Positions 2,934-63,829 of a stretch of 63,829 bases of DNA are shown here, in pieces. The number at the start of each line of letters is the position of its first letter. Within the stretch, counting starts at the first letter, position 1. The stretch lies in the IMG/VR virus record IMGVR_UViG_3300025875_000017, positions 1 to 63,829 of that record. One strand, given 5' to 3'. A model generated the notes under the pieces. That model made no database searches, was not told where the DNA came from, and saw only the letters and a program-made list of their open reading frames with translations. The translations under genes and the position numbers were made by a program. This DNA is from a virus. Taxonomy: Duplodnaviria > Caudoviricetes.

Positions 2934-3164
2934 ATGAGGCGAGGTCGAGCGCTTTATCCGCACCCAACGCCGATGAAGCTAGACGGCGGCGACCGCATCT
3001 TGGTTTCGCGGCAAGTGTTTGCCAAACAAACTGGCCTGCACGTCGACATGGTGCGCCGTCGAGTGCCGGCTGTTGCTTGCGACGTTAAGACGCGCGCATG
3101 GCTTATTGAGTTGGACGAAGCCGAGCAACTCTTGGCCCAAAAGATTTCTGCCGTGCGGGCTTGA
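2934..3164 (+). CDS. HTH DNA-binding protein (MerR/excisionase-like), candidate late activator
   Basis: RQVFAKQTGLHVDMVRRR helix-turn-helix pattern followed by a wing; sits directly before the promoter at 3161. Confidence 0.55.
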   Translation: MRRGRALYPHPTPMKLDGGDRILVSRQVFAKQTGLHVDMVRRRVPAVACDVKTRAWLIELDEAEQLLAQKISAVRA

Positions 3165-3191
3165 CAACTCCCGGCCGGGTTTTGCTACGAT
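3161..3191 (+). promoter_or_regulatory. promoter TTGACA-19-TACGAT with palindrome CCCGGCCGGG in the spacer
   Basis: Perfect -35, TG-extended -10, 19-nt spacer, 10-bp perfect palindrome at 3170-3179. Confidence 0.65.
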
Positions 3192-4404: not shown

Positions 4405-4486
4405 GGAGACGTGATGGAATCGGCATACATGGCAGCCTCAAAAGCTGCTGCCGAAAGGCATGCGGGTTCGACCCCCGCCGTCTCTA
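4405..4486 (+). tRNA. tRNA-Leu (anticodon CAA)
   Basis: Acceptor GGAGACG/CGTCTCT; anticodon arm GCAGC-CTCAAAA-GCTGC; long variable arm TGCC-GAAA-GGCA; T arm GCGGG-TTCGACC-CCCGC. Confidence 0.93.
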
Positions 4487-4512
4487 CGCACGGTCGAAAC
4501 ACAAGGACTAAC

Positions 4513-4584
4513 ATGGGGATCGCCTTAGCCGTTGTCCTCGCCGTCACGCTCCTAGCGTTGCTCGTGCTCATCGACTCACGGTAA
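4513..4584 (+). CDS. 23-aa single-TM micropeptide between the two tRNAs
   Basis: AAGGA RBS; MGIALAVVLAVTLLALLVLIDSR. Confidence 0.45.
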   Translation: MGIALAVVLAVTLLALLVLIDSR

Positions 4585-4640
4585 ACAGCAGTTCCGCAAA
4601 AGCGGTGACCGCCCGGCTTTTGCGCGTCTAGCAAAAACTT

Positions 4641-4711
4641 TCCCGGTTCGTCTAGCGGCAGGACGACGCTCTTTGGAAGCGTTCACGGACGTTCGATCCG
4701 TCCACCGGGAG
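4641..4711 (+). tRNA. tRNA-Gln (anticodon UUG)
   Basis: Acceptor TCCCGGT/ACCGGGA; anticodon arm ACGCT-CTTTGGA-AGCGT; T arm GGACG-TTCGATC-CGTCC. Confidence 0.93.
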
Positions 4712-4744
4712 CCGTAAGCAGAACCACCACCACAAAGGATCATC

Positions 4745-5020
4745 ATGACCACCTGGGTTGCTACGTTCGCTTACGACGAGCCGAAGAAGATTACCGCCGA
4801 GTATTGGCAGGTTGATCCCGACGTGTCGTGGGTGTTTTTCAAGACTTCCGACCATAAGGTCGTCTACGGTTGCCGCTCCGATCGGATCGTTAGCGTTGAG
4901 CGTGCTGAGCCGTCTCCTGGCATCGTGAACAACGGAACGATTACCACCACCAACATTGACGAGCTAGCCGAAAACCAGCGTAAGGCAACTAGGCGCGCAC
5001 TCGGCCTTGCTGGCATTTAA
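4745..5020 (+). CDS. small protein ending in a copy of the tape measure protein C-terminus
   Basis: AAAGGA RBS; last 33 aa are 22/33 identical to the last 33 aa of 22201..27264. Confidence 0.8.
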   Translation: MTTWVATFAYDEPKKITAEYWQVDPDVSWVFFKTSDHKVVYGCRSDRIVSVERAEPSPGIVNNGTITTTNIDELAENQRKATRRALGLAGI

Positions 5021-5222: not shown

Positions 5223-5355
5223 CCGGCACCGCAAAGCTTCTCGCCGACCTTGACTGTGAGGCCACTGAGCAGGCTGAGCGTGTGCCGAAGTACATGCGTG
5301 AGCCGAAGCGCCGGCCGCAGCGCAAGTGCCCCACCGCGCTGAGGTTCAGCAGCCG

Positions 5356-5691
5356 ATGAGCGAGTACCGTCCGCGCATTCTGGTCGACTTCGACGGCGTG
5401 ATCCACGCTTACTCGCGCGGCTGGGATGACGGCACCGCTTACGATGGTCCGATGTCTGGTGCTTTTTTTGCGCTGGCCGAGCTGGACAATGCCGGTTACG
5501 AAGTCGTCGTGTTCTCTACTCGCGATGCGCAACAGATCGTTGACTGGCTCGATTACCACGGCTTTCCGCCTTACCGCGTGACGAACGTTAAGGAGCCCGC
5601 TGTGGCGCAGATCGACGACCGAGCAATCCGTTTTGAGTCATGGGCTCAGGCGTCCAACGATGTGCAGTCGCTTTATCCGGTCAAGCGATGA
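5356..5691 (+). CDS. HAD-superfamily phosphatase (PNK 3'-phosphatase-like)
   Basis: ILVDFDGV, VVVFSTR, K, IDDRA motifs. Confidence 0.8.
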   Translation: MSEYRPRILVDFDGVIHAYSRGWDDGTAYDGPMSGAFFALAELDNAGYEVVVFSTRDAQQIVDWLDYHGFPPYRVTNVKEPAVAQIDDRAIRFESWAQASNDVQSLYPVKR

Positions 5692-6471: not shown

Positions 6472-8178
6472 GTGACGGACCCCATCGCGGAAATCCGTGC
6501 ACTACGCTTCCAGCAACAGACCCTCCGTAAGTTCCGTGACGCCATCATTGCGTCCATTGACCGGTTGCTGACCACCAACACGGACTTGACCGCAGTTACG
6601 GACGTGCAGCAGCAGCTCCTCGACCTGGCTGGCACATTCTTCGGTGCGCTCGGCGACAGCGTCAATGATCGGCAGATGCTGCACGACCTCGTTGACATGC
6701 TGCAAACCGCTGTCGACGCGGTGCGCAACGGGCTCGCCGTTGAAGTGCAGCGTGCAGCCAGCGCCGAGCAGACCAATACGACCGCCATCAGCAATGAGGC
6801 CACGCGAGCCATTGGCGCCGAGCAGGGCATCATCGGTAGCCTGTCCGTCGAGGTAGCGCGCGCAACGAAGGCCGAAACCAGCAACGGTCAAGCCATCGTC
6901 AATGAGATTACCCGCGCGACCGGTGCCGAGCAGGTCAACGTAAAGGCGATTAGCGACGAGTCAAGCCGCGCTAAGGCGGCGGAGCAAACCCTCACTACTG
7001 GGCTGAATGCTGAAACTAGTAGGGCTTTACAGGCCGAACAAACCCTTACTGCTAGTGTTACCGCCGAGGCCACCACTGCCCGTGCCGCCGAGACAGCCAA
7101 CGCGAAGGCCGTCAGCGACGAGACCGCTCGCGCTAAGTCCAGTGAGCAGACGCTCACTACGGGGCTTAGCAGCGAAGTCACTCGGGCCACGCAGGCTGAG
7201 GCGACACTAACCACCAACCTGACCGCTGAGACGGCCCGTGCGACGTCGGCAGAGCAGGCCGCGTCCAAGGCTGCCAGCGACGAAGCGACACGAGCTAAGG
7301 CCGCCGAGCAGGCAAACACGACAGCCATTGGCAATGAGGTCACGCGGGCACAAGGCGCTGAATCGACGCTCACGACGAACCTGTCCAGCGAGGTCACTCG
7401 CGCTAAGGCCGCCGAGTCCGCCGAGGTTACGTCACGTCAACAAGGTGACAGCACCAACGCCACGGCGATCACCCAAGAAACCACAGACCGCAAGGCGGCC
7501 GACACTGCCGAGGCCACTGCGCGGGCCAACGCGGACAGCACCGAAACTACGAACCGCACCAACGCGGACACCGCGCTCGGCACACGCATCGACAACGAGA
7601 CCACCGCCCGCATTGCTGGTGACGCAGCGGCCATCGTCTCAGCCCTCTGGTTCCCCCCATACGCGGCCGGGGCCAGCTACGGGCAAGGCGGCGACGCCGA
7701 GGTTTACGTGCTCACCGTTGGCCGGCTGCACGTTATGCCGATCTTCGTGCCGCCCAACTCGGCTGCCATCAAGTCATTGCAGCTTGAAGTCATCAGCGCA
7801 TCCGGGTCCGGGCGCACCGTTCGAGCTGGACTATGGCGGGATAATGGCAGCGGGCTACCCGGAGCGCTGCTGTACGACGGTGGGGCCATCCCAGCGCCCA
7901 CGTCGTATCCCGCGCTCATGCGATGGACGCCTAGCGCCGCCATCAGCGCCACCGGCTGGCTTTGGATGGGCGTCGCGCAGCAAGGCGGCACAACGGGCAA
8001 CCCAACGCAGACGCGCGGACTCAGCGGTTACATGGCGGGCGTGCGACAGTCACCTACTGGGCAAATGGGCGTCGGGCTCGTGTCCAGCACGGACAACGTG
8101 ACCGGGGCGTTCGCTGCTAACCCCGCCGTGGTCGCGGACGGAACCAACATCACGCCCCGGGTCACGCTGCTGTTCTAG
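6472..8178 (+). CDS. coiled-coil fibre-like protein with ~18-aa E-x-x-R-A-x-x-A-E repeats and a beta-rich C-terminal domain
   Basis: More than 12 repeats such as ETSRALQAEQTLTASVTA; repeat type typical of phage fibres. Confidence 0.7.
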   Translation: MTDPIAEIRALRFQQQTLRKFRDAIIASIDRLLTTNTDLTAVTDVQQQLLDLAGTFFGALGDSVNDRQMLHDLVDMLQTAVDAVRNGLAVEVQRAASAEQTNTTAISNEATRAIGAEQGIIGSLSVEVARATKAETSNGQAIVNEITRATGAEQVNVKAISDESSRAKAAEQTLTTGLNAETSRALQAEQTLTASVTAEATTARAAETANAKAVSDETARAKSSEQTLTTGLSSEVTRATQAEATLTTNLTAETARATSAEQAASKAASDEATRAKAAEQANTTAIGNEVTRAQGAESTLTTNLSSEVTRAKAAESAEVTSRQQGDSTNATAITQETTDRKAADTAEATARANADSTETTNRTNADTALGTRIDNETTARIAGDAAAIVSALWFPPYAAGASYGQGGDAEVYVLTVGRLHVMPIFVPPNSAAIKSLQLEVISASGSGRTVRAGLWRDNGSGLPGALLYDGGAIPAPTSYPALMRWTPSAAISATGWLWMGVAQQGGTTGNPTQTRGLSGYMAGVRQSPTGQMGVGLVSSTDNVTGAFAANPAVVADGTNITPRVTLLF

Positions 8179-22200: not shown

Positions 22201-25200
22201 TTGAGCATCAACGTCGGCTCCGTGTCCGTGGAAGTTGTCCCAAGCACTAAAGAGTTTGCCGAAAAGCTTCGGACTCAGCTTGCTGATTTGAAGACAAGTG
22301 TTCGGGTTGAACCTGACACTAAGGGGTTCGCCGCAAAGCTGAAGGCTCAGCTCAAAGATCAGCAAATCAAGGTTAAGCCGGTTATTGACCCAAACGATCC
22401 GGCTACGCGGGCTGCTGGGGCTAAGGCTGCTGGTTCATTTGCCGATAGTTTTAAAGCTCGCCTCAAGGCTGCTTTGGCGGATCTGCCGGAAGCCCGCATT
22501 ACCGCCAACTCGAATTATGCGGAAAGAACGATAGCCGATTTGCGTCGGCAGATGGAAACGCTTTCAAATAAGCGCATTGATATTGATATTTCTGCTCGGG
22601 ATGCTATTGCCGAGCTTGATCGGTTGCAAGCTGAGTTGGGGGCGGTTGGGGCTTCTTCTGCTGATCCTCGGATCCGTATTGATTCCGCTGCCGCCGCCGC
22701 TGAACTTGCGAAGTTTCGTGCTGAGTTGGCGCGTTTGGACGCGGAAGATGTCGATGTCGATGTCGATGTTGACACAAAGGGCGCTGAGTCTCGTCTTGCT
22801 GCGCTGAGCGGGTCTTCTTTTAATGCGTCTGGTGGTATGTCGTCGCTGATTGCTGCTGCCGTTGCATTGAGTCCTGCGCTGATCCCGATTGGCGCGGCGG
22901 CGATTGGTGCGAGCGTTGGTATCGCCGCGCTCGGTGCTGCCGGTGTCACGGCTGCTGGTGTTCTCGCCCTCGGCTTTTCGGGTGTGAGCGACGCCGTGAA
23001 ATTGTTGGGGCAGCGGTCGGATGCCGCGAAGGCCGCAGGGGCGTCTGCTGGGCAGTCTGCGGCGGCCCAGGCCCGGCAGATGGCTACGGCGCAGGCGTCG
23101 TTGGCGTCGGCGCAGCGACAGGCCGCGGAGTCGCAGGTGCAGTCTGCGGAGCGCGTGTCGGATGCGCAATACGCGGTGGGTCAGGCTGGACAGAAGGTCA
23201 CTCAAGCGCAGTACGCTTATGTGCAGGCCGGTAAGCAGGTTACCGAAGCCCAGTACGCGGTCGCGCAGTCCGCGCAGCGCGTGCAGGAAGCGCAATACGG
23301 TTTTGCTACGGCGTCCCGTCGGGTTACTGCGGCGCAGCAGGATCTTAAAACTGCGAACCAGGATGTCACTGACGCTGTTAAGGCGTTGACGGCGGCTCAG
23401 GAGGCTGCTGAGCGGCAATTGGAGTCGTACGCGGACCGCGCGGTTGATACTGGTTTGGCGCAGGAGCAGGCTGTCTTGGATTTGCAGGACGCGCAGGATA
23501 AGTACAACGCGACGATGAAGTCGTCTACGGCGACGGACCGCGACAAGATTGATGCGTCGCTGAGTTTGCGTAAGGCACAGCAGGGCCTGGTTGAGGCGAA
23601 CCAGGATGCGGCGAACGCGCAAGAGGACAATGCCGCCGCGCAGGCTAAGGGCGTTGCTGGTTCCGACCAGATGGTTGCGGCGACGAAGAATGTGCAGCAG
23701 GCCCAGCAGGGCGTCGTTGAAGCTACGCAGGCTGTGTCCGATGCGCAGCACGAGCAGGCGCAGGCAGCGCAGGGTGTTTTGGACGCCCAGCATGACCAGC
23801 AGCAGGCTATTGCGGCCGTGGTGGACGCTCAGCACGCTCAGCAAGCCGCCAACGTCGCGGTTCTTGAGGCGCAGCATGATCAGCAGCAGGCGGTGCGTGA
23901 TCTCGCGGACGCGCAGCGGCAGGCGGTTAATCAGCAGGCCGATTCGGCTGCGGCGATTGCGGCGGCTCAGCAGCAAATCCAGGCCGCGATGGACAAGACC
24001 GGTGATAGTGGTTCGGCGTCGCTGGCTAAGATTAACGATCAGTTGTCGAAGGTCAACCCGGCGACGCTCGCGTTCGCTGGGTTCGTGCAGGACAGGCTCG
24101 CGCCGGCGTTTGATCGGCTCAAGGGTGCTGCTGCGGCTGGGTTGTTGCCTGGCGTGCAGACGGCGTTGGAGAATCTGCTGCCTTTTGTGGGCCCGCTGTC
24201 CAAGTTCATTGGGCAATTAGCGGATCAGCTCGGCGACCTGTTCATTCAAGCATCCAATGCTTTGACGGGCCCCTTTTGGGCGCAGTTCTTCCAGTTCGTC
24301 GGTCGGGTCGCTGGCCCCACGATTGACACTCTCGGGCATATTATCGGTGACCTGTTCGAGGGTTTCGCTGGACTGGCGCAAGCGTTCCAGCCGGTCGCTG
24401 ACGTGTTCGTTGGCGGCATTAAGAACATGGCTGACCGGTTCGCCGAGTTCGGCAAGAACGCGAGTAGCAACTCGGGTTTCCAAAGTTTCATTCAGTACAT
24501 CATCGACAGCGGGCCGAAGGTTGCTAACTTTTTCGGTAGCCTGTTTGATGCTACGGGACGGATCCTCCAAGCGCTCGCCCCGGTCGGTGACGCGATCCTC
24601 GGTATCATTGGTTCGCTCGCGGATTCTATTGCGAAGTTGCCGCTGAGCACAATCCTTGATTTTGCGGCAGGGCTAGCCGCACTTGTGTTGGGCGGTTTGC
24701 AGCCTGAGGTTGCGGTTATCGCTGTGATCGCGGCCGGGTTTGTTGATTTGTATCAAAAGAGTCAACCGTTCCGCGACTTTATCGGCGAAATTGTTGATTT
24801 CGTTCAAACGCAACTAGTGCCGGTGCTTGGCGGTGTTCTCGCGGGTGCTATCCAGGGAGTTAAGGACGGTTTCCAGGACGTCATGAAAGTTGTCAACCAA
24901 AACCGGTCACAGCTTGGGGAGTTCTGGTCGTTCGTGAAAAACGATCTCGCCCCAGTCCTAACGTTTGTGCTCAAGTATGCTTTTGAACTGATCGTTGACA
25001 CGATCGCTGTTGTCGTGGCGGCTATCGGCGGTCTCGTAGATGTCTTCAACTTCCTGCGTGACACGGTCGATGCGGTGGCGTCTTTCTTCGCACAGAACGT
25101 GCTTCCGCGGCTGGTTGATTTCATCCAAACCGTTCAAGCAATCTATCGGGGCGTGCTTGATTTCTTGGGGCAAGCGTGGCTCACGCTTCAGGCTGTCATT

Positions 25201-27264
25201 GATGGCGTGGTGCAGTTCATCGCGGTGCAAATTTTTGGCCGCATTGTTGGATTCATCAACGGTACGCAACAATTCTTTAGTAACATGTTTCTTTATCTGC
25301 AAGGAGCATGGCAGGCGTTTCAGGGACTAGTTGATGGGGTCGTCCAGTTCATTGCCATCAACGTGTTTGGCCGCATCGTCGGCTTCGTCAATGGCGTGCA
25401 ACAGTTCTTCGGCAACATGTTTGCGTACATGCAGGGCGCGTGGCAGGCTTTCCAAACCCTTGTTGATGGTGTAGCCCAGTTCATTGCGAACAACGTCTAT
25501 GGAACGCTGCTCAACTTTACCAATGGTGTCCGCGGGTTTTTTACTGATTTGTTCGGGTTTTTTGGCGCGGGTTGGCAGGGACTGCAAAACGCTTCTAAGG
25601 CCGCCGCTGATTTCTTGACCTCAACGGTCTCGGGAATCTTTAACGGTTTCGTTGGCGGCGTACAAAACGCGTTCTCTAACATGTTTAATGCCGTGAGCAC
25701 CGGCTGGGATGCGCTCAAGAACGTTGCCCGCGACGGAATCAACTTCGTTATTGGCACCGTGTACGACGATGGTATCCGCGACGTGTTCAACAAGGTCGCG
25801 GACTTCTTCCACCTGCCCGATAGCGTGCGGCTGCCGTTTGTGAGTCAGATTGGTTTGCCTCCTGCCGAAACGGGTGCGGCTGGTAGGCGCGGCAACTTTT
25901 ACACGGGTGGCTACACGGGTGACGGCGGTAAGTATGAGCCCGCTGGCGTCGTTCACGCTGGCGAGTTCGTGTTCCCGCAGGAATCTGTCGCCCAGCTCGG
26001 TGTGCCGTTCCTAGGGCAACTGGCGGGGCTCCCGGGCTACGCTGGCGGTGGTTTCGTTGGCGCGGTGAAGGGCGCGGCGAGTTCGGTTGCTAACGGGATC
26101 GGTGACGTGGCGGGGTTCTTGACGAACCCGGTCGGCAAGATCACTGACGCCGTTTCGGGCTTGTTCGATAAGCTCACCGGCTCCCCGTTCGGTCAGGGTC
26201 TCGTGGGCGGCGTGAAGACGCTGATCGGCTGGGCCGGCGATAATCTCAAGTCGCTGTTGTCTGCGGCGCAGGGCACGGGCACGCTTGCCCCGGGCGCTAA
26301 CATGGTTGAGCGCCTGTTCAACACGGTGAAGGCCCAGTTCCCGTTCGCTCACCTGAATGACGGGTTTCGGCCGGGCGCAAGCGACTACCACGGCAAGGGC
26401 CTCGCCGTTGACCTTGGCGTCACGGGCGTTCCGGGTGGCGATGGCTCTTCGGGGCTGGCCGCGATGAACCGGTGGATCTACGATAACTTCGGTGGCAGTA
26501 TCACCGAGTTGATTTATGACGGTCTCGGTGATGACCGGCCTGATAAGAAAAACGGGCAGGACCACAACTACGGTTCCGCCTTGTCGGCGCAGCACCACAA
26601 CCACGTTCACTGGGCTATGGCCACCGCACCGTCGGGTGCTGTCCCGGATGCTGTGGCAGGTGCTGCTGGGCTTAATGCTGTGGAGCGTTGGCGTCCTACG
26701 GTCGATCAGGCGCTTGCTATGCTGGGCATCTCGAAGTCTTTGGACAATGGCGTGCTGTCGCTGATCAAGAACGAGTCCGGGGGCAACCCGAACGCGATAA
26801 ACTTGACCGACTCGAACGCTAAGGCCGGTCACCCGTCGCGCGGTCTCATGCAGACCATTCCCGCAACATTCGAGCGGTGGCGGTCGCAGTCGCTGCCGGA
26901 CAACATTGTTGATCCGCTGGCGAACGTGTATTCGGGCATCAACTATTTCGCGCACACCTACCCTTTGTCGCAGCTCGCGGCGGGCGGGCGACACAATGCT
27001 GCCGGTTCGTATGTGGGCTACGATTCGGGCGGTATTGTTCCACCCGGCCCGTCGCTTCACTACAACGGGACGGGTGCGAATGAGATTGTCGCTCCGACTG
27101 CGACGTGGGAGCAAGCACTTGTGTCGATGCAGACTAAGACGGGTGCTGGCACCTCGGTGTCCGGTATCACAAACAATGGCACTATTGTAACGACCGACAT
27201 TGATGCGCTTGCCCGTAAGCAGCGGCAGGCCACCAGTCGAGCGCTCGCTACTGCTGGTCTCTGA
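22201..27264 (+). CDS. tape measure protein with C-terminal peptidoglycan peptidase-like and lytic transglycosylase domains
   Basis: 1687 aa; Ala/Gln heptads; 44-aa aromatic repeats; DYHGKGLAVD..HHNHVH; ESGGNPNAINLTDSNA..GHPSRGLMQ. Confidence 0.95.
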   Translation: MSINVGSVSVEVVPSTKEFAEKLRTQLADLKTSVRVEPDTKGFAAKLKAQLKDQQIKVKPVIDPNDPATRAAGAKAAGSFADSFKARLKAALADLPEARITANSNYAERTIADLRRQMETLSNKRIDIDISARDAIAELDRLQAELGAVGASSADPRIRIDSAAAAAELAKFRAELARLDAEDVDVDVDVDTKGAESRLAALSGSSFNASGGMSSLIAAAVALSPALIPIGAAAIGASVGIAALGAAGVTAAGVLALGFSGVSDAVKLLGQRSDAAKAAGASAGQSAAAQARQMATAQASLASAQRQAAESQVQSAERVSDAQYAVGQAGQKVTQAQYAYVQAGKQVTEAQYAVAQSAQRVQEAQYGFATASRRVTAAQQDLKTANQDVTDAVKALTAAQEAAERQLESYADRAVDTGLAQEQAVLDLQDAQDKYNATMKSSTATDRDKIDASLSLRKAQQGLVEANQDAANAQEDNAAAQAKGVAGSDQMVAATKNVQQAQQGVVEATQAVSDAQHEQAQAAQGVLDAQHDQQQAIAAVVDAQHAQQAANVAVLEAQHDQQQAVRDLADAQRQAVNQQADSAAAIAAAQQQIQAAMDKTGDSGSASLAKINDQLSKVNPATLAFAGFVQDRLAPAFDRLKGAAAAGLLPGVQTALENLLPFVGPLSKFIGQLADQLGDLFIQASNALTGPFWAQFFQFVGRVAGPTIDTLGHIIGDLFEGFAGLAQAFQPVADVFVGGIKNMADRFAEFGKNASSNSGFQSFIQYIIDSGPKVANFFGSLFDATGRILQALAPVGDAILGIIGSLADSIAKLPLSTILDFAAGLAALVLGGLQPEVAVIAVIAAGFVDLYQKSQPFRDFIGEIVDFVQTQLVPVLGGVLAGAIQGVKDGFQDVMKVVNQNRSQLGEFWSFVKNDLAPVLTFVLKYAFELIVDTIAVVVAAIGGLVDVFNFLRDTVDAVASFFAQNVLPRLVDFIQTVQAIYRGVLDFLGQAWLTLQAVIDGVVQFIAVQIFGRIVGFINGTQQFFSNMFLYLQGAWQAFQGLVDGVVQFIAINVFGRIVGFVNGVQQFFGNMFAYMQGAWQAFQTLVDGVAQFIANNVYGTLLNFTNGVRGFFTDLFGFFGAGWQGLQNASKAAADFLTSTVSGIFNGFVGGVQNAFSNMFNAVSTGWDALKNVARDGINFVIGTVYDDGIRDVFNKVADFFHLPDSVRLPFVSQIGLPPAETGAAGRRGNFYTGGYTGDGGKYEPAGVVHAGEFVFPQESVAQLGVPFLGQLAGLPGYAGGGFVGAVKGAASSVANGIGDVAGFLTNPVGKITDAVSGLFDKLTGSPFGQGLVGGVKTLIGWAGDNLKSLLSAAQGTGTLAPGANMVERLFNTVKAQFPFAHLNDGFRPGASDYHGKGLAVDLGVTGVPGGDGSSGLAAMNRWIYDNFGGSITELIYDGLGDDRPDKKNGQDHNYGSALSAQHHNHVHWAMATAPSGAVPDAVAGAAGLNAVERWRPTVDQALAMLGISKSLDNGVLSLIKNESGGNPNAINLTDSNAKAGHPSRGLMQTIPATFERWRSQSLPDNIVDPLANVYSGINYFAHTYPLSQLAAGGRHNAAGSYVGYDSGGIVPPGPSLHYNGTGANEIVAPTATWEQALVSMQTKTGAGTSVSGITNNGTIVTTDIDALARKQRQATSRALATAGL

Positions 27265-27275
27265 GACGGGGGAAC

Positions 27276-28169
27276 GTGTACACGCCACCGCCGCGTACCT
27301 CGGTCAGCATTATCGGTGTTGATGGGTCGTCGTGGGATCTTACTGGCCCGGGTTCCACGGCGACTCTTGTCGACGGCTTGTCGGGTTTGCATTTGCCGAA
27401 GACGAGCCAGTTGTGGTCTAAGACGGCTCGCCGTCCGGGGCAGACGTGGCGGGGGTCCCGGTTGGAGTCCCGCGAGTTCACCGTGAAAGTTGCGGTGGGC
27501 GATTCGGATGCCCCGTACCGTCGTGGCGACGACTGGCGCACTCTCGATTCCCAATTCTGGCAGGCGCTGTCCACGGACGCACTTGCGACGCTGCGAGTGA
27601 ATGACCGGTATCTGCGGTTCCGGCTGGACGATAACGAGGACCCGGTGTTCGCGCAGGACCCCGCATTGTTGGGCAACGCTGTGTACAGCATTGACTGTAT
27701 TGCGGACCGTCCGGAGTGGATGGGCGATCAGATCAGCAAAGCGTTTGCCTACAACGCCTTGGCGAATCAGAACTATTATGGTGGCAGCACCGGCCTCGGT
27801 CCGCCGTTCTACATTGGCGAGGCCGGAATCTTCGACTCGGCTGCTGTGCCTAATCCTGGCGACCTGCCTGCGTACCCGACGTGGATGATCGTTGGGCCCG
27901 CAACCCGGGTCACGTTCGGCGTGGGTAACCGAACAACGACGCTACCGTTCAGCCTCAACGTTGGCGATCAGGTCATCATTGACACGGAAGCGCAGATGAT
28001 CCGCGACCAGCAGGGCAACAACTTGTGGCCGCAGATTGGTTACACGCCCGTGAATCTAGCCCCGATTCCGCCCGGTGATCCTTCGCCTGTAGTGATTGCG
28101 ATGGATGGTGCCGAGGCTGGCGCGTCCGTGACCGTATCTTTGATTCCTTTGTATCGGCGGGCCTGGTGA
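27276..28169 (+). CDS. distal tail (Dit-like) minor tail protein
   Basis: G.DGS.WDL, NPGDLPAYPTW.I.GP; follows TMP. Confidence 0.8.
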   Translation: MYTPPPRTSVSIIGVDGSSWDLTGPGSTATLVDGLSGLHLPKTSQLWSKTARRPGQTWRGSRLESREFTVKVAVGDSDAPYRRGDDWRTLDSQFWQALSTDALATLRVNDRYLRFRLDDNEDPVFAQDPALLGNAVYSIDCIADRPEWMGDQISKAFAYNALANQNYYGGSTGLGPPFYIGEAGIFDSAAVPNPGDLPAYPTWMIVGPATRVTFGVGNRTTTLPFSLNVGDQVIIDTEAQMIRDQQGNNLWPQIGYTPVNLAPIPPGDPSPVVIAMDGAEAGASVTVSLIPLYRRAW

Positions 28170-29344
28170 CGGACGCTGGCATGGTCGTCGAGGTTTATGA
28201 CGGCGCGTACGTTAAGCAAACGCAGGCCCCGGACTACCAAACCTGTTCCGTCACGTGGCGATACTTGGCCGTCGGTTCCGGCACACTCATCGTCAGCGAG
28301 GACGACCCAGCGGCCGGCGTGCTGTTGGACTGCGTGACCAAGGTTGTGCCTGTACGCATCACGCTGAACGGCATGAAATGGTCGGGGCGCGTGATTACCG
28401 CTCAGTACGATGAAGATGCCGACTCACCGCCTACGGTGACCGCGACATTGGTCGATGATTGGGCGTGGCTGCGGGCCATGCTCGCTAGCCAAAACGGCGC
28501 TAACCCGGATCTCACGAATATGTCCTCGTATGACACGCAAACCGCTGAGGCCGCGCAGCTCGCCCGCTACTACATTAGCGCGGCAGCCCAACGGCTCGGC
28601 GTCAGCGTGCAGGTCACTAACCGGGGTTTGTTCGGTACTACGTCGTCCACACTGAACGCTCGTATGGACGCTTTGGATGAGTTGCTAACTGTGCCATTGA
28701 GCGCCAGTAACCTGTCGATGCGTGCTTACACGTGGCTGCCAGGCGATGTCCAGCCGCCCGGGCTCACACTGACCGCCCCGACGGTCGTGTTTGATCCTAA
28801 GCAGATGACGGATAAGTCGTGGCTGCAATGGTCAACTTCGGTCGGGTCTTTGTCCGATGTGCATTTGACTGCGTCCGCGCCTAGCGCCTACCGGACCGTT
28901 CTCGGTTTGGATGGGCAGGACGTGGACCGCCGGTATTACGGCTATACAAATACGGATCTGCAAGGTACCCTCGGTGCATTTGGGTTTCCCGAGTTGTACG
29001 TGGATGCCACGGACTTGTCCGATATGGATGATCCGTTGCCGCGCGCGCAACAAAAGCTCGCCGAAAAGGCGGGCACCGTGTCCGCATCATTCACCGTGCA
29101 AGATGGCGTCCCCTGGACGTACGGCACCGACTACCGCGTTGGCGACGTTGGATCATTCGACGTGGCGGGCGTCCAGTTCCGCGAGCGCATCACGCAGGTC
29201 ACCGCAACCGATAACCGTGACGGGGGACTCGTGTTCACCCCGCAGATCGGTGACCCGAACGCTTCCGATTCATCCGATAATGCCGTGATCGCGGCCGTGC
29301 AGCGTATCGCTTCCGACATTCGTTCTATTCAGAAGGGCCGCTGA
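28166..29344 (+). CDS. minor tail / baseplate hub protein (Gp37-like)
   Basis: W.YGTDYRVGD...RERITQVT...TP.IGDP. Confidence 0.8.
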   Translation: MTDAGMVVEVYDGAYVKQTQAPDYQTCSVTWRYLAVGSGTLIVSEDDPAAGVLLDCVTKVVPVRITLNGMKWSGRVITAQYDEDADSPPTVTATLVDDWAWLRAMLASQNGANPDLTNMSSYDTQTAEAAQLARYYISAAAQRLGVSVQVTNRGLFGTTSSTLNARMDALDELLTVPLSASNLSMRAYTWLPGDVQPPGLTLTAPTVVFDPKQMTDKSWLQWSTSVGSLSDVHLTASAPSAYRTVLGLDGQDVDRRYYGYTNTDLQGTLGAFGFPELYVDATDLSDMDDPLPRAQQKLAEKAGTVSASFTVQDGVPWTYGTDYRVGDVGSFDVAGVQFRERITQVTATDNRDGGLVFTPQIGDPNASDSSDNAVIAAVQRIASDIRSIQKGR

Positions 29345-34723: not shown

Positions 34724-35206
34724 ATGGCGTCCATTCAGCTGTATGCGCCTACTGGTGGAATTGTCACCGTCACCAGTTATCAGGACGCCCTCGTGAAGCT
34801 TTACACGCAGGGCTACTTCACGGTTATTGGGTCTAAAGATTCGAACTTGCAGGCGCTTGCGGGTGGCGCGGCACCTTACGGCGCAGGCGACCCGACTGCT
34901 ATCGCCGGTGGCTTGTCGATTGATGTAGCCGATAAGCGGTATGTGCTGGTTACAGATTTCGCTAAGGGTGTTCAACACGCGGTCGCCAGTATTTTTGTTG
35001 GCCAAGGAACGTACAACGAAACAACGGGCCGCTTCACCCTAACCGGGACTGGGGCTGGGGGAAACGCTAGCGGCGGGGGCGGGGGTGCTACTACTGGCGG
35101 TGGCACCACAGGAAGCGGTAGCGGATCAACTGGCGGAACCGGCACAGTGACGACCCCAACCGTCAACTCTGGCAAATACCAGGCCACTTATCCGACGAGT
35201 TATTAA
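34724..35206 (+). CDS. Gly-rich putative virion adaptor; N-terminus shared with 42718..45000
   Basis: GGAG RBS; VTVT...LVKLYTQGY motif. Confidence 0.65.
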   Translation: MASIQLYAPTGGIVTVTSYQDALVKLYTQGYFTVIGSKDSNLQALAGGAAPYGAGDPTAIAGGLSIDVADKRYVLVTDFAKGVQHAVASIFVGQGTYNETTGRFTLTGTGAGGNASGGGGGATTGGGTTGSGSGSTGGTGTVTTPTVNSGKYQATYPTSY

Positions 35207-42687: not shown

Positions 42688-42717
42688 ACCATTCACTACT
42701 CATTGAGGAGGCTGGTC

Positions 42718-45000
42718 GTGGGATCGGTAGTCCTGCTAGACCCGCAAGGCAAGACGGTTACGGTCACCGATACCTACGATTTTCTCGTCAAGATATATAC
42801 GCAAGGTTATGAGCCGCAGTCTGGGTCGATTCAATCAAATCTTGACAAGATTAAGGGCAATGGCGAGCTGGCTCCCGCGTTGCGGGAACTGCTGACGCTC
42901 GGCGACTTTGCCAACCCGCAGTCGGACGTTAACAAGGTGCTGCAAGGCATGTTCACGTCCACGCCGCCCACAACGGACGCTAGTAAGCTTACGTCAGGTA
43001 TTTTGCCGGCGGCGCGGGTCGGGTCGGGGTCCGTGACCGCAGCGAAACTCGCTAGCGATGTGCCTGGTGCTATTGCCGTCGCGCCGGAACTAAGGGCGGC
43101 CTCTGGGTCAGTCGCGGCGGTCGTGACGGCGTCCGGCGCGCTGGTGGTGCAGAAGCACAACCCGGTCGACGCCAGCAGCGGCGCCCGCACGATGACGCTG
43201 CCGATCGGCGCACCGGAGGGCTCGCAGCTGTCGGTCGAGAAGGTGGACATCAGCACGAACACGGTCACGATCACGGGCAACCTCCGAGGCACCGCGAGCT
43301 CGTCGATCGCGCTGGTCTACCAGCGGGAGACCGTGCAGCTGCGGGCGGACGCCTCCGGCTCCTGGTGGCCGACCGCTGGCCACCGCACGAAGACCTCTCT
43401 GGACACCGCATCCGTCGCCGCCGTGAAGGCCGCGATCACCGCCGGCGACATCGTCACCGGGACGACCGTTGACCCCGCGGTCCAGATCGGCGACTCGCTC
43501 ACCCAGAACTGGAGCGCCTACAACACCGCTCTCGCGGCGGCGCTCGGCCGGCCGCTGAACAACATCGGCATCGGCGGCCAGGGGACGCTGCAGATCGCGG
43601 CCCGCCAGGGCGGCTCGCCCGCGCTGCTGACCGTGACGGGCAACGTCATCCCGGCCAGTGGCGCGGTCGCGGTCACCGCCTACAGCGTCAACCTGCTGGC
43701 CCGCCCCAGCGACGGCACGCAGTCCATCAAGGGTGTCCTCGCCGGCGTCTCCGGCACCCTGCAGATGGCCCAGTCCAGCGGCACCTGGTCGTACACGTTC
43801 ACCCGCGACACGGCGGGCATACCCATGCCATGCTCGCCGAACACCCCGTTCGTGACCGGCCTCGAGTACGAGGACGCCTGGCCGATCATCTGGACCGGCC
43901 GCAACGACATCGGCCAGGGAGCCTTCCGCACGCCGCTCGCCGACATCGTCACCGCGATCAAGGGGATGCTCGCCTGGTCTCGGCGCGGACAGCGAGCCGT
44001 CGTCCTCTCGGTGCTCCCCCGGGCCGACGAGGACTCCACTGGGTCCGCCGCTCGCACGATCCTCGACCAGCTCAACGCAGGGCTGCAGTCCGCCTTCCCC
44101 CAGGCGTTCGTCGACATCGCCGCGATCTTGCGCACCGACGCCGCCTTCGCCATCGCGGGCATCACCAAGACCACCCAGGACGCCACGGACATCACCAACG
44201 GCCTGACCCCGACGTCCTTCCGCGGGTCGGACATCGTCCACCTCAACGCCGCCGGCTACACCGTGCTCAACACGGTCCTGCCGCACATCCTGGACGACCG
44301 AGGCTGGCACGCGGCATCCCTCGCCAGCTACCCGTCCGGCGCGTCGACCGCAGCCCTGCACGACAACGGGGTGGCCGGGGCGACCCACCGCTACGTCCCC
44401 AGCGTGCTGGCGCTGTCCAGCGGCACCGCCGCGAGCACCCTGCCCGACTCGATCGGCTCGGCCACCCTAGCAGCCGTCGGCACGTCCGCCGGCAACCCGA
44501 CGGTCACCGCCGAGGGCGCCGGGCAGGTGCTCTCGTTCGTCAGCACCACCGGCAAGTCGATGAACGCGACCACCACCGTCGCCACCCCGTTCACCGTCGC
44601 CCTGGTGGTCAAGTCGACGGCCACCGCCTACAACATCGCGGTGGTGGACGGCTACCGCATCCAGAGGGCCAGCAACGGCTCCTGGGCTCTGGCTGGCGGG
44701 GCATCCGATGGATCCACGGCACTCGTGACGCTGCCCGGTTCGGACAACTACGTGGTCATCTTCGGGGTGTGCAACGGGTCCAGCTCTCAGCTGGCGGTGA
44801 ACGGGACCGTCACCAGTAGTGCGGGCAGCATCGTAGGACCCGGAGCGGGGCTCAGCGGGAAGATCCAACTCGGTCCGCAGGTGTCCGGCGCTTCGCTGAT
44901 CAACATCGCCGAGGCCAACATCTGGCCGTTCGCGCTCACCGCCGCCCAGCAGGCGGCGCACATCACGGCGATGAAGGCGCGCTACGCCTTCATCGCCTGA
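42718..45000 (+). CDS. tail/appendage protein with SGNH esterase and C-terminal LamG-like domain
   Basis: IGDSLT, GIGGQ, WTGRND, DIVHLN; GAGGAGG RBS. Confidence 0.8.
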   Translation: MGSVVLLDPQGKTVTVTDTYDFLVKIYTQGYEPQSGSIQSNLDKIKGNGELAPALRELLTLGDFANPQSDVNKVLQGMFTSTPPTTDASKLTSGILPAARVGSGSVTAAKLASDVPGAIAVAPELRAASGSVAAVVTASGALVVQKHNPVDASSGARTMTLPIGAPEGSQLSVEKVDISTNTVTITGNLRGTASSSIALVYQRETVQLRADASGSWWPTAGHRTKTSLDTASVAAVKAAITAGDIVTGTTVDPAVQIGDSLTQNWSAYNTALAAALGRPLNNIGIGGQGTLQIAARQGGSPALLTVTGNVIPASGAVAVTAYSVNLLARPSDGTQSIKGVLAGVSGTLQMAQSSGTWSYTFTRDTAGIPMPCSPNTPFVTGLEYEDAWPIIWTGRNDIGQGAFRTPLADIVTAIKGMLAWSRRGQRAVVLSVLPRADEDSTGSAARTILDQLNAGLQSAFPQAFVDIAAILRTDAAFAIAGITKTTQDATDITNGLTPTSFRGSDIVHLNAAGYTVLNTVLPHILDDRGWHAASLASYPSGASTAALHDNGVAGATHRYVPSVLALSSGTAASTLPDSIGSATLAAVGTSAGNPTVTAEGAGQVLSFVSTTGKSMNATTTVATPFTVALVVKSTATAYNIAVVDGYRIQRASNGSWALAGGASDGSTALVTLPGSDNYVVIFGVCNGSSSQLAVNGTVTSSAGSIVGPGAGLSGKIQLGPQVSGASLINIAEANIWPFALTAAQQAAHITAMKARYAFIA

Positions 45001-61013: not shown

Positions 61014-61778
61014 ATGACCATCAACTTCGACACCCTCACTCTCGCTAGAGGCTCGCACGACGAGTGCGACGACGGCTCCTGCCTCATGGAAGCCCGCATG
61101 CTCCTGCTGGGCAAGCCCAAGACCGACGACCGCCAGCCCGGCGTGTCCCGCGTCCTGCACGACATGGGCATCAACCTCAACGACTCGTTCCCGGATGACC
61201 GCCGGCAGGAGCTGAAGCGATTCCTCCCCCACGGCGGTGTCGATCCGCTCGCGAACACTGACGATGGGCGTGACGAGCAGCGGTCCTACATGGCGTTGGA
61301 TTGGCTAATCCGTACGTACACGCCCGCGTTCTTGGATTTGCGGCCCGAGCTGGCTGACGTGGCTGCGGAGCTGCGATCGCTGCGGCGGATCGTTGATATG
61401 GCTGCCGCCGAGGCTGCTGGTCCTGTCGTTCGTACTGCGCAGCAGAAGTCGGCCGCCGCTGGGGACGCCGCTTGGGCCGCCGCTGGGGCCGCCGCTCGGG
61501 CCGCCGCTGGGGCCGCCGCTGGGGCCGCCGCTCGGGACGCCGCTCGGGACGCCGCTGGGGACGCCGCTCGGGCCGCCGCTGGGGCCGCCGCTCGGGACGC
61601 CGCTTGGGCCGCCGCTGGGGCCGCCGCTCGGGACGCCGCTTGGGCCGCCGCTTGGGCCGCCGCTCGGGACGCCGCTCGGGCCGCCGCTGGGGCCGTTTTG
61701 CAGCCTACCGTCGCCAGCTTGCAGGCGTCAGCCATTGAATTGTACGCGGCAATGATCAATCCGAGTTCCATTGCCTAA
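61014..61778 (+). CDS. protein with Ala-rich (A/D)AA(G/R/W) tandem repeat
   Basis: L..GSH.....CLMEA...D...VS.V....NDS; 20 tetrapeptide units. Confidence 0.8.
   Translation: MTINFDTLTLARGSHDECDDGSCLMEARMLLLGKPKTDDRQPGVSRVLHDMGINLNDSFPDDRRQELKRFLPHGGVDPLANTDDGRDEQRSYMALDWLIRTYTPAFLDLRPELADVAAELRSLRRIVDMAAAEAAGPVVRTAQQKSAAAGDAAWAAAGAAARAAAGAAAGAAARDAARDAAGDAARAAAGAAARDAAWAAAGAAARDAAWAAAWAAARDAARAAAGAVLQPTVASLQASAIELYAAMINPSSIA
61452..61691 (+). repeat. 12-bp tandem repeat G(C/A)CGCCGCT(G/C/T)GG x20
   Basis: Counted directly. Confidence 0.9.
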
Positions 61779-63656: not shown

Positions 63657-63829
63657 CCGCCCCGACGTCCGCCGAGTATGCGGCCGCCGACAACATCACC
63701 GCCGGCATGGGACGCGACCCAAAGACTGAGGCCGAACTGCGGGAACGAGTCGCGCAGGTATTGGCTGACGTGCAGGGGAAGTATGAGTTGGTTGCAAGTG
63801 AGTTGCTTTATTTGGGTGGTGGTATTGCA
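63653..63829 (+). CDS. hypothetical protein spanning the circular junction (continues through 5..205)
   Basis: GTG at 63653 overlaps the previous stop; MTAPTSAEYAAADNITAG is in frame with MGRDPKTEAELRER of ORF 5..205. Confidence 0.75.
   Translation, partial: MTAPTSAEYAAADNITAGMGRDPKTEAELRERVAQVLADVQGKYELVASELLYLGGGIA

Follow-up and report, generated by a model that had tools for sequence, protein, structure and literature searches.

A small phage protein ends in a diverged counterpart of the phage's own tape measure C-terminus and is a candidate mimic of it

Why should a phage encode, far from its tail genes, a small protein that ends like its own tape measure protein (TMP)? The question is raised by the 91-residue product P0001 of a virus record of 63,829 bp (61.8% G+C, complete), which is the window analysed here at its full length; a groundwater metagenome, probably the source of the record, is the only sequencing run listed with this phage, with no RNA run alongside it. 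All recognisable genes are on the plus strand (Table 1). The ends of the record share an exact overlap of 127 nt (1-127 = 63703-63829), listed as a "direct terminal repeat", which fits a circular assembly with an arbitrary start point better than a biological terminal repeat. The genome yielded neither a resolvase nor an integrase of the tyrosine or serine type, and the phage is therefore probably lytic. The nearest cultured relatives of its tail proteins belong to Gordonia, Rhodococcus and Mycobacterium phages (22-36% identity), and close relatives of the phage itself were found neither among cultured phages nor in viral, metagenome or genome contigs. Likewise, no phage relative was recovered from viral contigs with the TMP end and the hub protein as queries, or from the phage collection with the DNA of the Dit-hub region. 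Elsewhere in the genome, about 28 tandem 12-nt units (61403-61743) encode a 4-residue Gly/Ala/Pro-type repeat inside an open reading frame of 254 aa (61014-61778) that has no PHROG match. The first ~45 residues of a 765-aa fibre-like protein (42703-45000) resemble a 160-aa open reading frame (34724-35206; 52% identity over 42 aa, E value 2.5e-4), a pair that represents a second shared terminal module in this genome and possibly a common baseplate-attachment piece.

Table 1. Positions of the features discussed in the text
Feature	Position	Strand	Evidence or remark
TTGACA-N19-TACGAT motif	3161..3191	+	133-nt intergenic gap
tRNA-Leu	4405..4487		upstream of tRNA-Gln
tRNA-Gln(UUG)	4641..4713	+	ends 32 nt 5' of the P0001 ATG
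P0001 gene, 91 aa	4745..5020	+	translation; stop codon TAA at 5018-5020
P0001 N-terminal domain, residues 1-54	4745..4906	+	AlphaFold2, Foldseek, profile search
P0001 Pro/Ser-rich junction, residues 55-58	4907..4918	+	modelled without regular structure; no TMP similarity
P0001 TMP-like tail, residues 59-91	4919..5017	+	BLASTP, codon comparison, AlphaFold2
HNH endonuclease	10767	+	genome annotation
Small terminase	11342	+	genome annotation
Large terminase	11811	+	genome annotation
Portal	13564	+	genome annotation
Capsid protease	15423	+	genome annotation
Major capsid	17136	+	genome annotation
Major tail protein	20918	+	genome annotation
TMP, 1687 aa, with SLT domain	22201..27264	+	PHROG, domain search
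TMP C-terminal 33 residues, counterpart of the P0001 tail	27163..27261	+	translation, alignment
Dit-like minor tail protein	27276..28169	+	phrog_106 (E 5e-52), weak Dit match
Hub/Tal-like minor tail protein	28166..29344	+	phrog_110 (E 3e-47)
Endolysin	30460	+	genome annotation
Fibre-like proteins	35-45 kb	+	
Recombination and replication genes	49-61 kb	+	

The argument depends on the long open reading frame at 22201-27264 being the TMP, as the first-pass annotation had assumed. It matches PHROG TMP families down to an E value of 2.5e-79 (phrog_4197; phrog_167, E value 7e-72) in addition to carrying the SLT domain, and the gene order fits a TMP, with the major tail protein before it and the Dit-like and hub-like proteins after it. 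The Dit-like protein is presumed to form part of the docking site of the TMP end and the hub-like protein is presumed to be its partner; the latter shares 34% identity with a protein encoded downstream of the TMP of Gordonia phage GMA4, the nearest cultured hub. The TMP has internal repeats, with four 42-nt units and a 132-nt tandem duplication of 70% identity (23734-23891 and 25173-25436). A 568-aa open reading frame at 6472-8178, which combines Thr/Ala/Glu-rich repeats at multiples of 54 nt with a non-repetitive C-terminal part, was rejected as a relative of the TMP coiled coil, the resemblance being compositional (E value 0.34 after composition correction).

The last 33 residues of P0001 align without gaps to the last 33 residues of this TMP with 22 identities (67%), and both copies run exactly into their stop codons, TAA and TGA, respectively. 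The match had been noted from the letters alone and was re-derived by translation, BLASTP and codon comparison. In a pairwise BLASTP alignment (E value 6e-14), residues 58-91 pair with the TMP end over 34 positions, 22 of them identical, without a gap, and P0001 as query against its own genome returned the TMP end at an E value of 6.8e-9. In the six-frame translation of the genome, the runner-up ungapped 33-residue match to the TMP tail reached 11/33, and in an all-versus-all comparison of the 434 plus-strand open frames of at least 40 aa, the P0001/TMP pair was the best non-trivial match (E value 7e-9). Residues 59-91 are homologous to the extreme C-terminus of a TMP, which is the sequence mark of a TMP C-terminal domain. 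Such a second copy is not common: in the cultured actinophages GMA4, Hum25, REQ1 and Perlina, none of which has a member of the P0001 family, the last 40 residues of the TMP had no second genomic copy at E values up to 10 (0/4).

Comparison of the two tails codon by codon bore out the earlier observation that 13 of the 22 identical residues use different codons, the other nine using the same one, and the nucleotide differences are distributed 7/7/20 over the three codon positions (34 codons including the stop). The Nei-Gojobori estimates are pS 0.65, dS 1.54, dN 0.26 and dN/dS 0.17, with synonymous sites near saturation. The tail is therefore not a recent DNA copy; the protein was kept while silent sites neared saturation, in agreement with the protein-level conservation first proposed. 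At the DNA level, the two copies resemble each other from the glycine codon that opens the shared stretch through to the stop, and the flanks on both sides are dissimilar.

These values bear directly on the main rival explanation, i.e., that P0001 is a one-off chimera in which the 3' end of a TMP (its own, long ago, or that of a relative) was placed in frame behind the barrel by illegitimate recombination, so that the N-domain does the protein's work while the tail persists as baggage without a TMP-related role. We regard this explanation as a substantial possibility, at well under an even chance. If the tail was copied within this genome, a dS of 1.5 implies that it survived for a long time intact and in frame, which counts against a chimera, as does homology that starts after the barrel and a 4-residue junction and ends at the stop without any flanking remnant. 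However, the dN/dS could have been inherited from TMP-TMP evolution if the donor was the TMP of another phage; a low ratio and changes restricted to one helix face would be equally expected if the divergence had accrued while both sequences were TMP ends. Also in favour of the chimera, the phage is a singleton, every piece of direct evidence coming from its one genome.

The pattern of substitutions within the tail is also relevant. Residues 1-12 of the tail, rich in Gly, Asn and Thr, are 9/12 identical to the TMP, while the last 21 residues, predicted to be helical, are 13/21 identical. The AlphaFold2 model places a helix at P0001 residues 72-86 with low confidence (pLDDT 40-55), and residues 55-71 have no regular structure (pLDDT about 40-70). 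The eight differing positions in tail residues 13-33 lie on one helix face (mean resultant 0.72, reached in 8/20000 permutations); with the analysis limited to the modelled helix, the clustering was reached in 284/20000 permutations. In heptad terms, positions a, b, d and e are kept whereas c, f and g vary, a pattern compatible with a helix that packs through a single side, in a coiled coil or onto a binding partner. If the copy was made within this genome, the retention of 22/33 residues, with changes in the tail confined to one helix face, argues against a chimera with an inert tail; the low confidence of the modelled tail counts in its favour. Co-folding of the hub-like protein with P0001 gave a score of 0.00 in a single job without controls, which counts neither for nor against binding.

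An invariant helix face would fit a coiled-coil core, and TMP ends are described as three-helix coiled coils in two structural reports (PMC11445458, PMC10721106). Thus, the 33 residues could be a shared oligomerisation module only, a generic trimerising unit employed independently by both proteins without cross-talk. The fibre-like protein and the 160-aa open reading frame, with their shared terminus, offer a parallel for such a module within the same genome. On the other hand, two nearly identical trimerising cores present in the same cell should mix, which already amounts to cross-talk, and no other protein carries the 33-residue unit in the collections searched. We consider this explanation improbable.

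The open reading frame of P0001 is a real gene, as indicated by an AAGGA ribosome-binding site ~8 nt 5' of the ATG, by 19 homologues and by a confidently predicted fold. It directly follows the tRNA-Gln gene, as had been stated, and sits among small accessory genes without assignment, ~6 kb upstream of the terminase, outside the tail module and 22 kb from the sequence encoding the TMP C-terminus. Tail assembly chaperones of the gpG/gpGT type use a programmed frameshift and have their gene between those of the major tail protein and the TMP; P0001 is not of this type by position, its gene lying ~16 kb upstream of the major tail gene. PADLOC, whose 2023 version predates Tab and Tai, gave no match for P0001, its relative P0009 or the neighbouring genes, and Pfam, PHROG and PADLOC searches of the P0001 neighbours gave no assignment pointing to a tab/tai-like gene. 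Three further features were observed in the surroundings. Between tRNA-Leu and tRNA-Gln lies a strongly hydrophobic 23-codon open reading frame (4514-4585), followed on its 3' side by a 9-bp inverted repeat (~4596-4626). Two genes downstream of P0001, a 121-aa open reading frame (5326-5691) has a HAD-like DxDGV start and a weak phosphoheptose-isomerase/HAD match (phrog_1238, E value 9e-13; Pfam below cut-off).

The timing of expression was the one part of the first-pass annotation of the sequence that found no support. The motif at 3161 had been taken as a putative late promoter and P0001, in one option, as a late-expressed decoy. The motif is the sole match to TTGACA-N16-19-TANNNT in the genome, but at least one TTGACA-type match occurred in 36/100 shuffled genomes, and the motif was not among the promoters listed by a promoter scan. 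Its consensus is of the host sigma-70/SigA type, making it a possible host-type promoter of the gene block that includes P0001, and leaves the proposed late expression without a basis. If anything, such a consensus hints at early expression.

The N-terminal part of P0001 had been described as a beta-rich domain of ~55 residues, which the AlphaFold2 model with the family alignment supports: residues 1-54 form a six-stranded small beta-barrel with pLDDT above 90, probably of the SH3/Sm-like type. P0001 had no match in Pfam or the PHROGs. At weak E values, Foldseek matched the barrel to numerous phage proteins of ~55-60 aa that share its fold and are uncharacterised. Models of proteins from Microbacterium phage Megan, Rhodococcus phage Trina and other actinophages in BFVD resemble the barrel with TM-scores (by target) of 0.82-0.88, the Megan protein giving 0.88, and DUF903/YgdR and Hfq-like barrels of the PDB with 0.6-0.74. 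All of these differ from P0001 in lacking sequence similarity to it, the Foldseek E values being 4e-4 at best in BFVD and 0.015, a weak value, in the PDB; none of the matched proteins has a known function. A profile search against the PDB gave the KOW domain of uL24 (weak, E value 0.08).

The results from the homology searches indicate that this N-domain defines a hitherto undescribed family, with 20 small phage proteins, all metagenomic and none of them named (P0001, P0004-P0006 and P0009-P0024). An exhaustive HMMER search returned three small N-domain homologues of 60-74 aa (E values 2.5e-6 to 8e-5), while two other matches, P0007 and P0008, are repetitive proteins and were discarded as chance matches. 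A profile search seeded by the three homologues and two metagenome loci then gave the 20 proteins (E values 1e-31 to 2e-13), which share an N-domain of ~50 aa with invariant A, Y, W, F, K, K and V positions. When each protein was split after the last barrel strand, everything beyond being counted as tail, four of the 20 ended within 8 residues, two had short tails (19 and 24 aa) and 14, including P0001, had tails of 37-75 aa. As the tail-less members show, the N-domain can function by itself. For the tailed members of the main subfamily (13 proteins and 78 pairs, with P0001 and P0006 excluded), mean identity is 77% (64-98%) over the last 42 N-domain residues and 27% (10-84%) over the tails.

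The family tails behave like exchangeable units. Two loci on soil-type metagenome contigs, L006 (617-1050) and L007 (391-725), have nearly identical flanks and differ by an indel of ~100 nt that is exactly the tail. In both, the family gene is followed by a gene for a conserved membrane protein of 52-53 aa whose start overlaps the stop codon as ATGA. L006 also encodes, on the strand opposite the family gene, an amidase endolysin that is 72% identical to that of phage Hum25, by which sequence L006 is assigned to an Arthrobacter-type phage. In L006, as in the phage of P0001, the family gene is outside the tail module. Ten family tails terminate in a similar short Trp-Gly/Ala-Arg motif; in L006 it lies over the region where the next gene starts, which may account for its conservation.

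The P0001 tail occurs in no other member among the 19 homologues: four have no tail, two a short one and 13 other, hypervariable tails. The loss of the tail from homologues had been named beforehand as an observation that would speak against a role for it, and this came true in part, in that the P0001 tail is absent throughout, whereas 13/19 have a tail of another sequence. For the chimera, the 0/19 distribution and the four tail-less members among 20 are favourable, and hypervariability is what would be expected of a weakly constrained appendage. Against it, the length and layout of the P0001 tail are those of P0009, the only other family member modelled, in which AlphaFold2 gave a barrel at residues 1-52 and a low-confidence helix at 72-86; the P0001 tail thus resembles an ordinary tail of the family rather than an accidental product. 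Sequence similarity between the tails is slight. The score of the P0001 tail with a profile of nine family tails was reached by 20/500 shuffles, which is marginal, and the tail is marginally similar to those of P0006, P0014, P0016 and P0022 (3-35 per 1000 shuffles), mostly at the junction. The TMP tail has no significant similarity to the same profile (61/500 shuffles reach its score), and its pairwise comparisons with 13 family tails were all null. The family-member contigs compared, those other than the longer ones of P0014 (19.7 kb) and P0024 (42.5 kb), span 0.6-2.6 kb.

Searches in wider collections were likewise negative. P0001 had no relative in a collection of 50,697 phage records (megablast and tblastn) or in viral contigs, and in a word-indexed set of 5.8 billion proteins it retrieved only itself. 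Queried alone, the tail gave no match to longer proteins, and tblastn against phages at E values up to 10 returned chance matches only, on the wrong strand (E values 3-10). No match was obtained with the tail as a degenerate DNA motif in viral contigs, with an alignment-based scan of viral, metagenome and genome contigs, or with PHROG scans using the P0001 tail or the TMP tail alone. The other family members gave nothing meaningful against cultured phages, the family profile found nothing in genome contigs or in GMA4, Hum25, REQ1 and Perlina, and the Protein Atlas yielded nothing above the chance range. Full-text searches of the literature retrieved no paper describing a mimic or decoy of the TMP end.

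In light of these results, we propose, at about an even chance, that P0001 is a functional mimic of the TMP C-terminal domain. This reading draws on two features: the copied unit is the structural and functional unit of the TMP end, kept at the protein level and placed on a soluble carrier, and the family tails behave like swappable cassettes. P0001 would be a soluble two-part protein in which an SH3/Sm-like barrel (residues 1-54) and a flexible linker display a copy of the TMP C-terminal domain (residues 59-91). Because the tail keeps the conserved face of the TMP end, it should bind the partners of that end, for which the candidates are the TMP's own coiled coil, the socket of the baseplate core, or some factor of the cell able to recognise that end. 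Folding and binding of the tail in the manner of the TMP end, together with every subsequent step of function, is what we infer from the similarity. Several observations count against the proposal. It concerns a single case, given that 0/19 homologues have the tail and no tail relative was found in any collection; the other family tails lack significant similarity to the TMP tail; some family members are tail-less and the tail helix is modelled with low confidence; and hub binding by a mimic, or its entry into TMP trimers, would put the tails of the phage itself at risk of being poisoned.

Among the forms that a mimic might take, we lean tentatively, by analogy, toward a decoy or competitor made outside the tail-gene module, while assigning it clearly less than an even chance. 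The gene is accessory and patchily distributed, its tail is hypervariable, and a defence that reads the TMP end is known, all of which favour this form. As a decoy, P0001 would shield the low-copy TMP end from a targeting factor such as Tab in Pseudomonas. To our knowledge, no defence that targets the TMP end has been described from Actinobacteria. Two other forms of the mimic appear unlikely, namely a factor for the assembly or plugging of the tail tip and, with no better prospects, a targeting signal that brings the barrel domain into the tail tip.

The same binding could also be turned outward, P0001 acting as a dominant-negative weapon against relatives that co-infect or superinfect the cell, by capping their hub or joining their TMP trimers, i.e., a Tab/Tai-like block achieved by mimicry. 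Blocking tail assembly is an established means by which mobile elements exclude rivals (PMC10884400; PMC11364771), and hypervariable tails would fit an arms race. The position of the L006 family gene opposite the endolysin strand, coupled to the small membrane protein, may recall the Arthrobacter phage Hum25 prophage accessory region. However, the P0001 tail is closest to the phage's own TMP, so that its own tails would be the first victims; without an integrase or resolvase, the phage probably has no prophage state from which to express a defence; and no counter-measure gene is evident. We therefore hold such a weapon to be rather unlikely.

Whether the proposal extends to the whole family is more doubtful. 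We consider it unlikely, though worth stating, that the family is an unseen accessory class in which a constant barrel displays a swappable copy of the resident phage's own TMP C-terminal domain. In that case, the hypervariable tails would change in step with that phage's TMP and hub, and the proteins might act as decoys that divert defences recognising the TMP end or, in another role, the tail might be a tail-tip address that loads the barrel into the baseplate core, from which it would enter the host ahead of the DNA. What is new here by observation is a confidently predicted barrel in an undescribed family whose conserved N-domain is combined with hypervariable or absent tails. The TMP C-terminal domain nucleates the assembly of siphophage tails, and at least one defence, Tab, is tuned to this part of the TMP; a soluble phage-encoded look-alike of it would be a new way to protect or manipulate tail assembly. 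If the family tails track their own TMPs, they would provide a marker, readable from sequence, of the specificity of the interaction between TMP end and hub, and the barrel with its 33-residue tag would be a portable probe of tail initiation. Should the tail be inert, the locus would still represent a new small-protein family and an example of short terminal modules moving between phage genes.

The known systems closest to the P0001 tail are the TMP C-terminal domains of siphophages (JBD30 gp46, T5 pb2, 80alpha and lambda gpH residues 818-842). In JBD30, the 33 residues at the TMP C-terminus form a coiled coil that the baseplate core holds in place, T5 and 80alpha having the same fold (PMC11445458), and the background on TMP docking invoked by the first-pass annotation agrees with this, the 33 residues of P0001 matching the anchored domain in length and position. 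In lambda, gpH residues 818-842 are described as a coiled coil resting on the gpI plug (PMC10721106). Deletion of the last 30 aa of the TMP of TP901-1 is reported to give heads without tails (PMC5099701). The P0001 tail resembles these domains in its ~33 residues at the extreme C-terminus, its predicted helix with one invariant face and its 67% identity to the end of its own TMP. It differs in that the carrier of the unit is a barrel of 55 aa and not a TMP of 1687 aa, and in that its gene lies 22 kb distant, outside the tail module; trimer formation and docking in the baseplate core are, for P0001, putative.

Defences that act on the TMP provide the second comparison. Tab is a defence protein that blocks tail assembly, and its specificity maps to the TMP C-terminus, in keeping with the background given in the first-pass annotation; phages carrying Tab encode anti-Tab, which binds Tab (PMC10884400). 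The Tai/Ati systems work along similar lines (PMC11364771). Other defences meet the TMP differently: what Avs18 senses is a segment in the central part of the TMP, and SNIPE is associated with the TMP as injection takes place (PMC13581612; 10.1101/2025.11.03.685801). As with P0001, anti-Tab (JBD26 gp30) and AtiEcA (phi80) are small proteins whose genes lie close to the packaging region of the phage and apart from the tail genes, and they protect tail assembly when a factor targets the C-terminal region of a tail protein (PMC10884400; PMC11364771). Unlike what is proposed for P0001, they bind the blocker, adjoin the blocker gene and are not reported as TMP-like. Finally, lambda gpI resembles P0001 in size and is a small protein that meets the C-terminal coiled coil of the TMP inside the tip (PMC10721106). 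It differs from P0001 in supporting the TMP helix without resembling it and in being encoded in the tail module, and would be a possible analogue if P0001 proves to be an assembly or plug factor.
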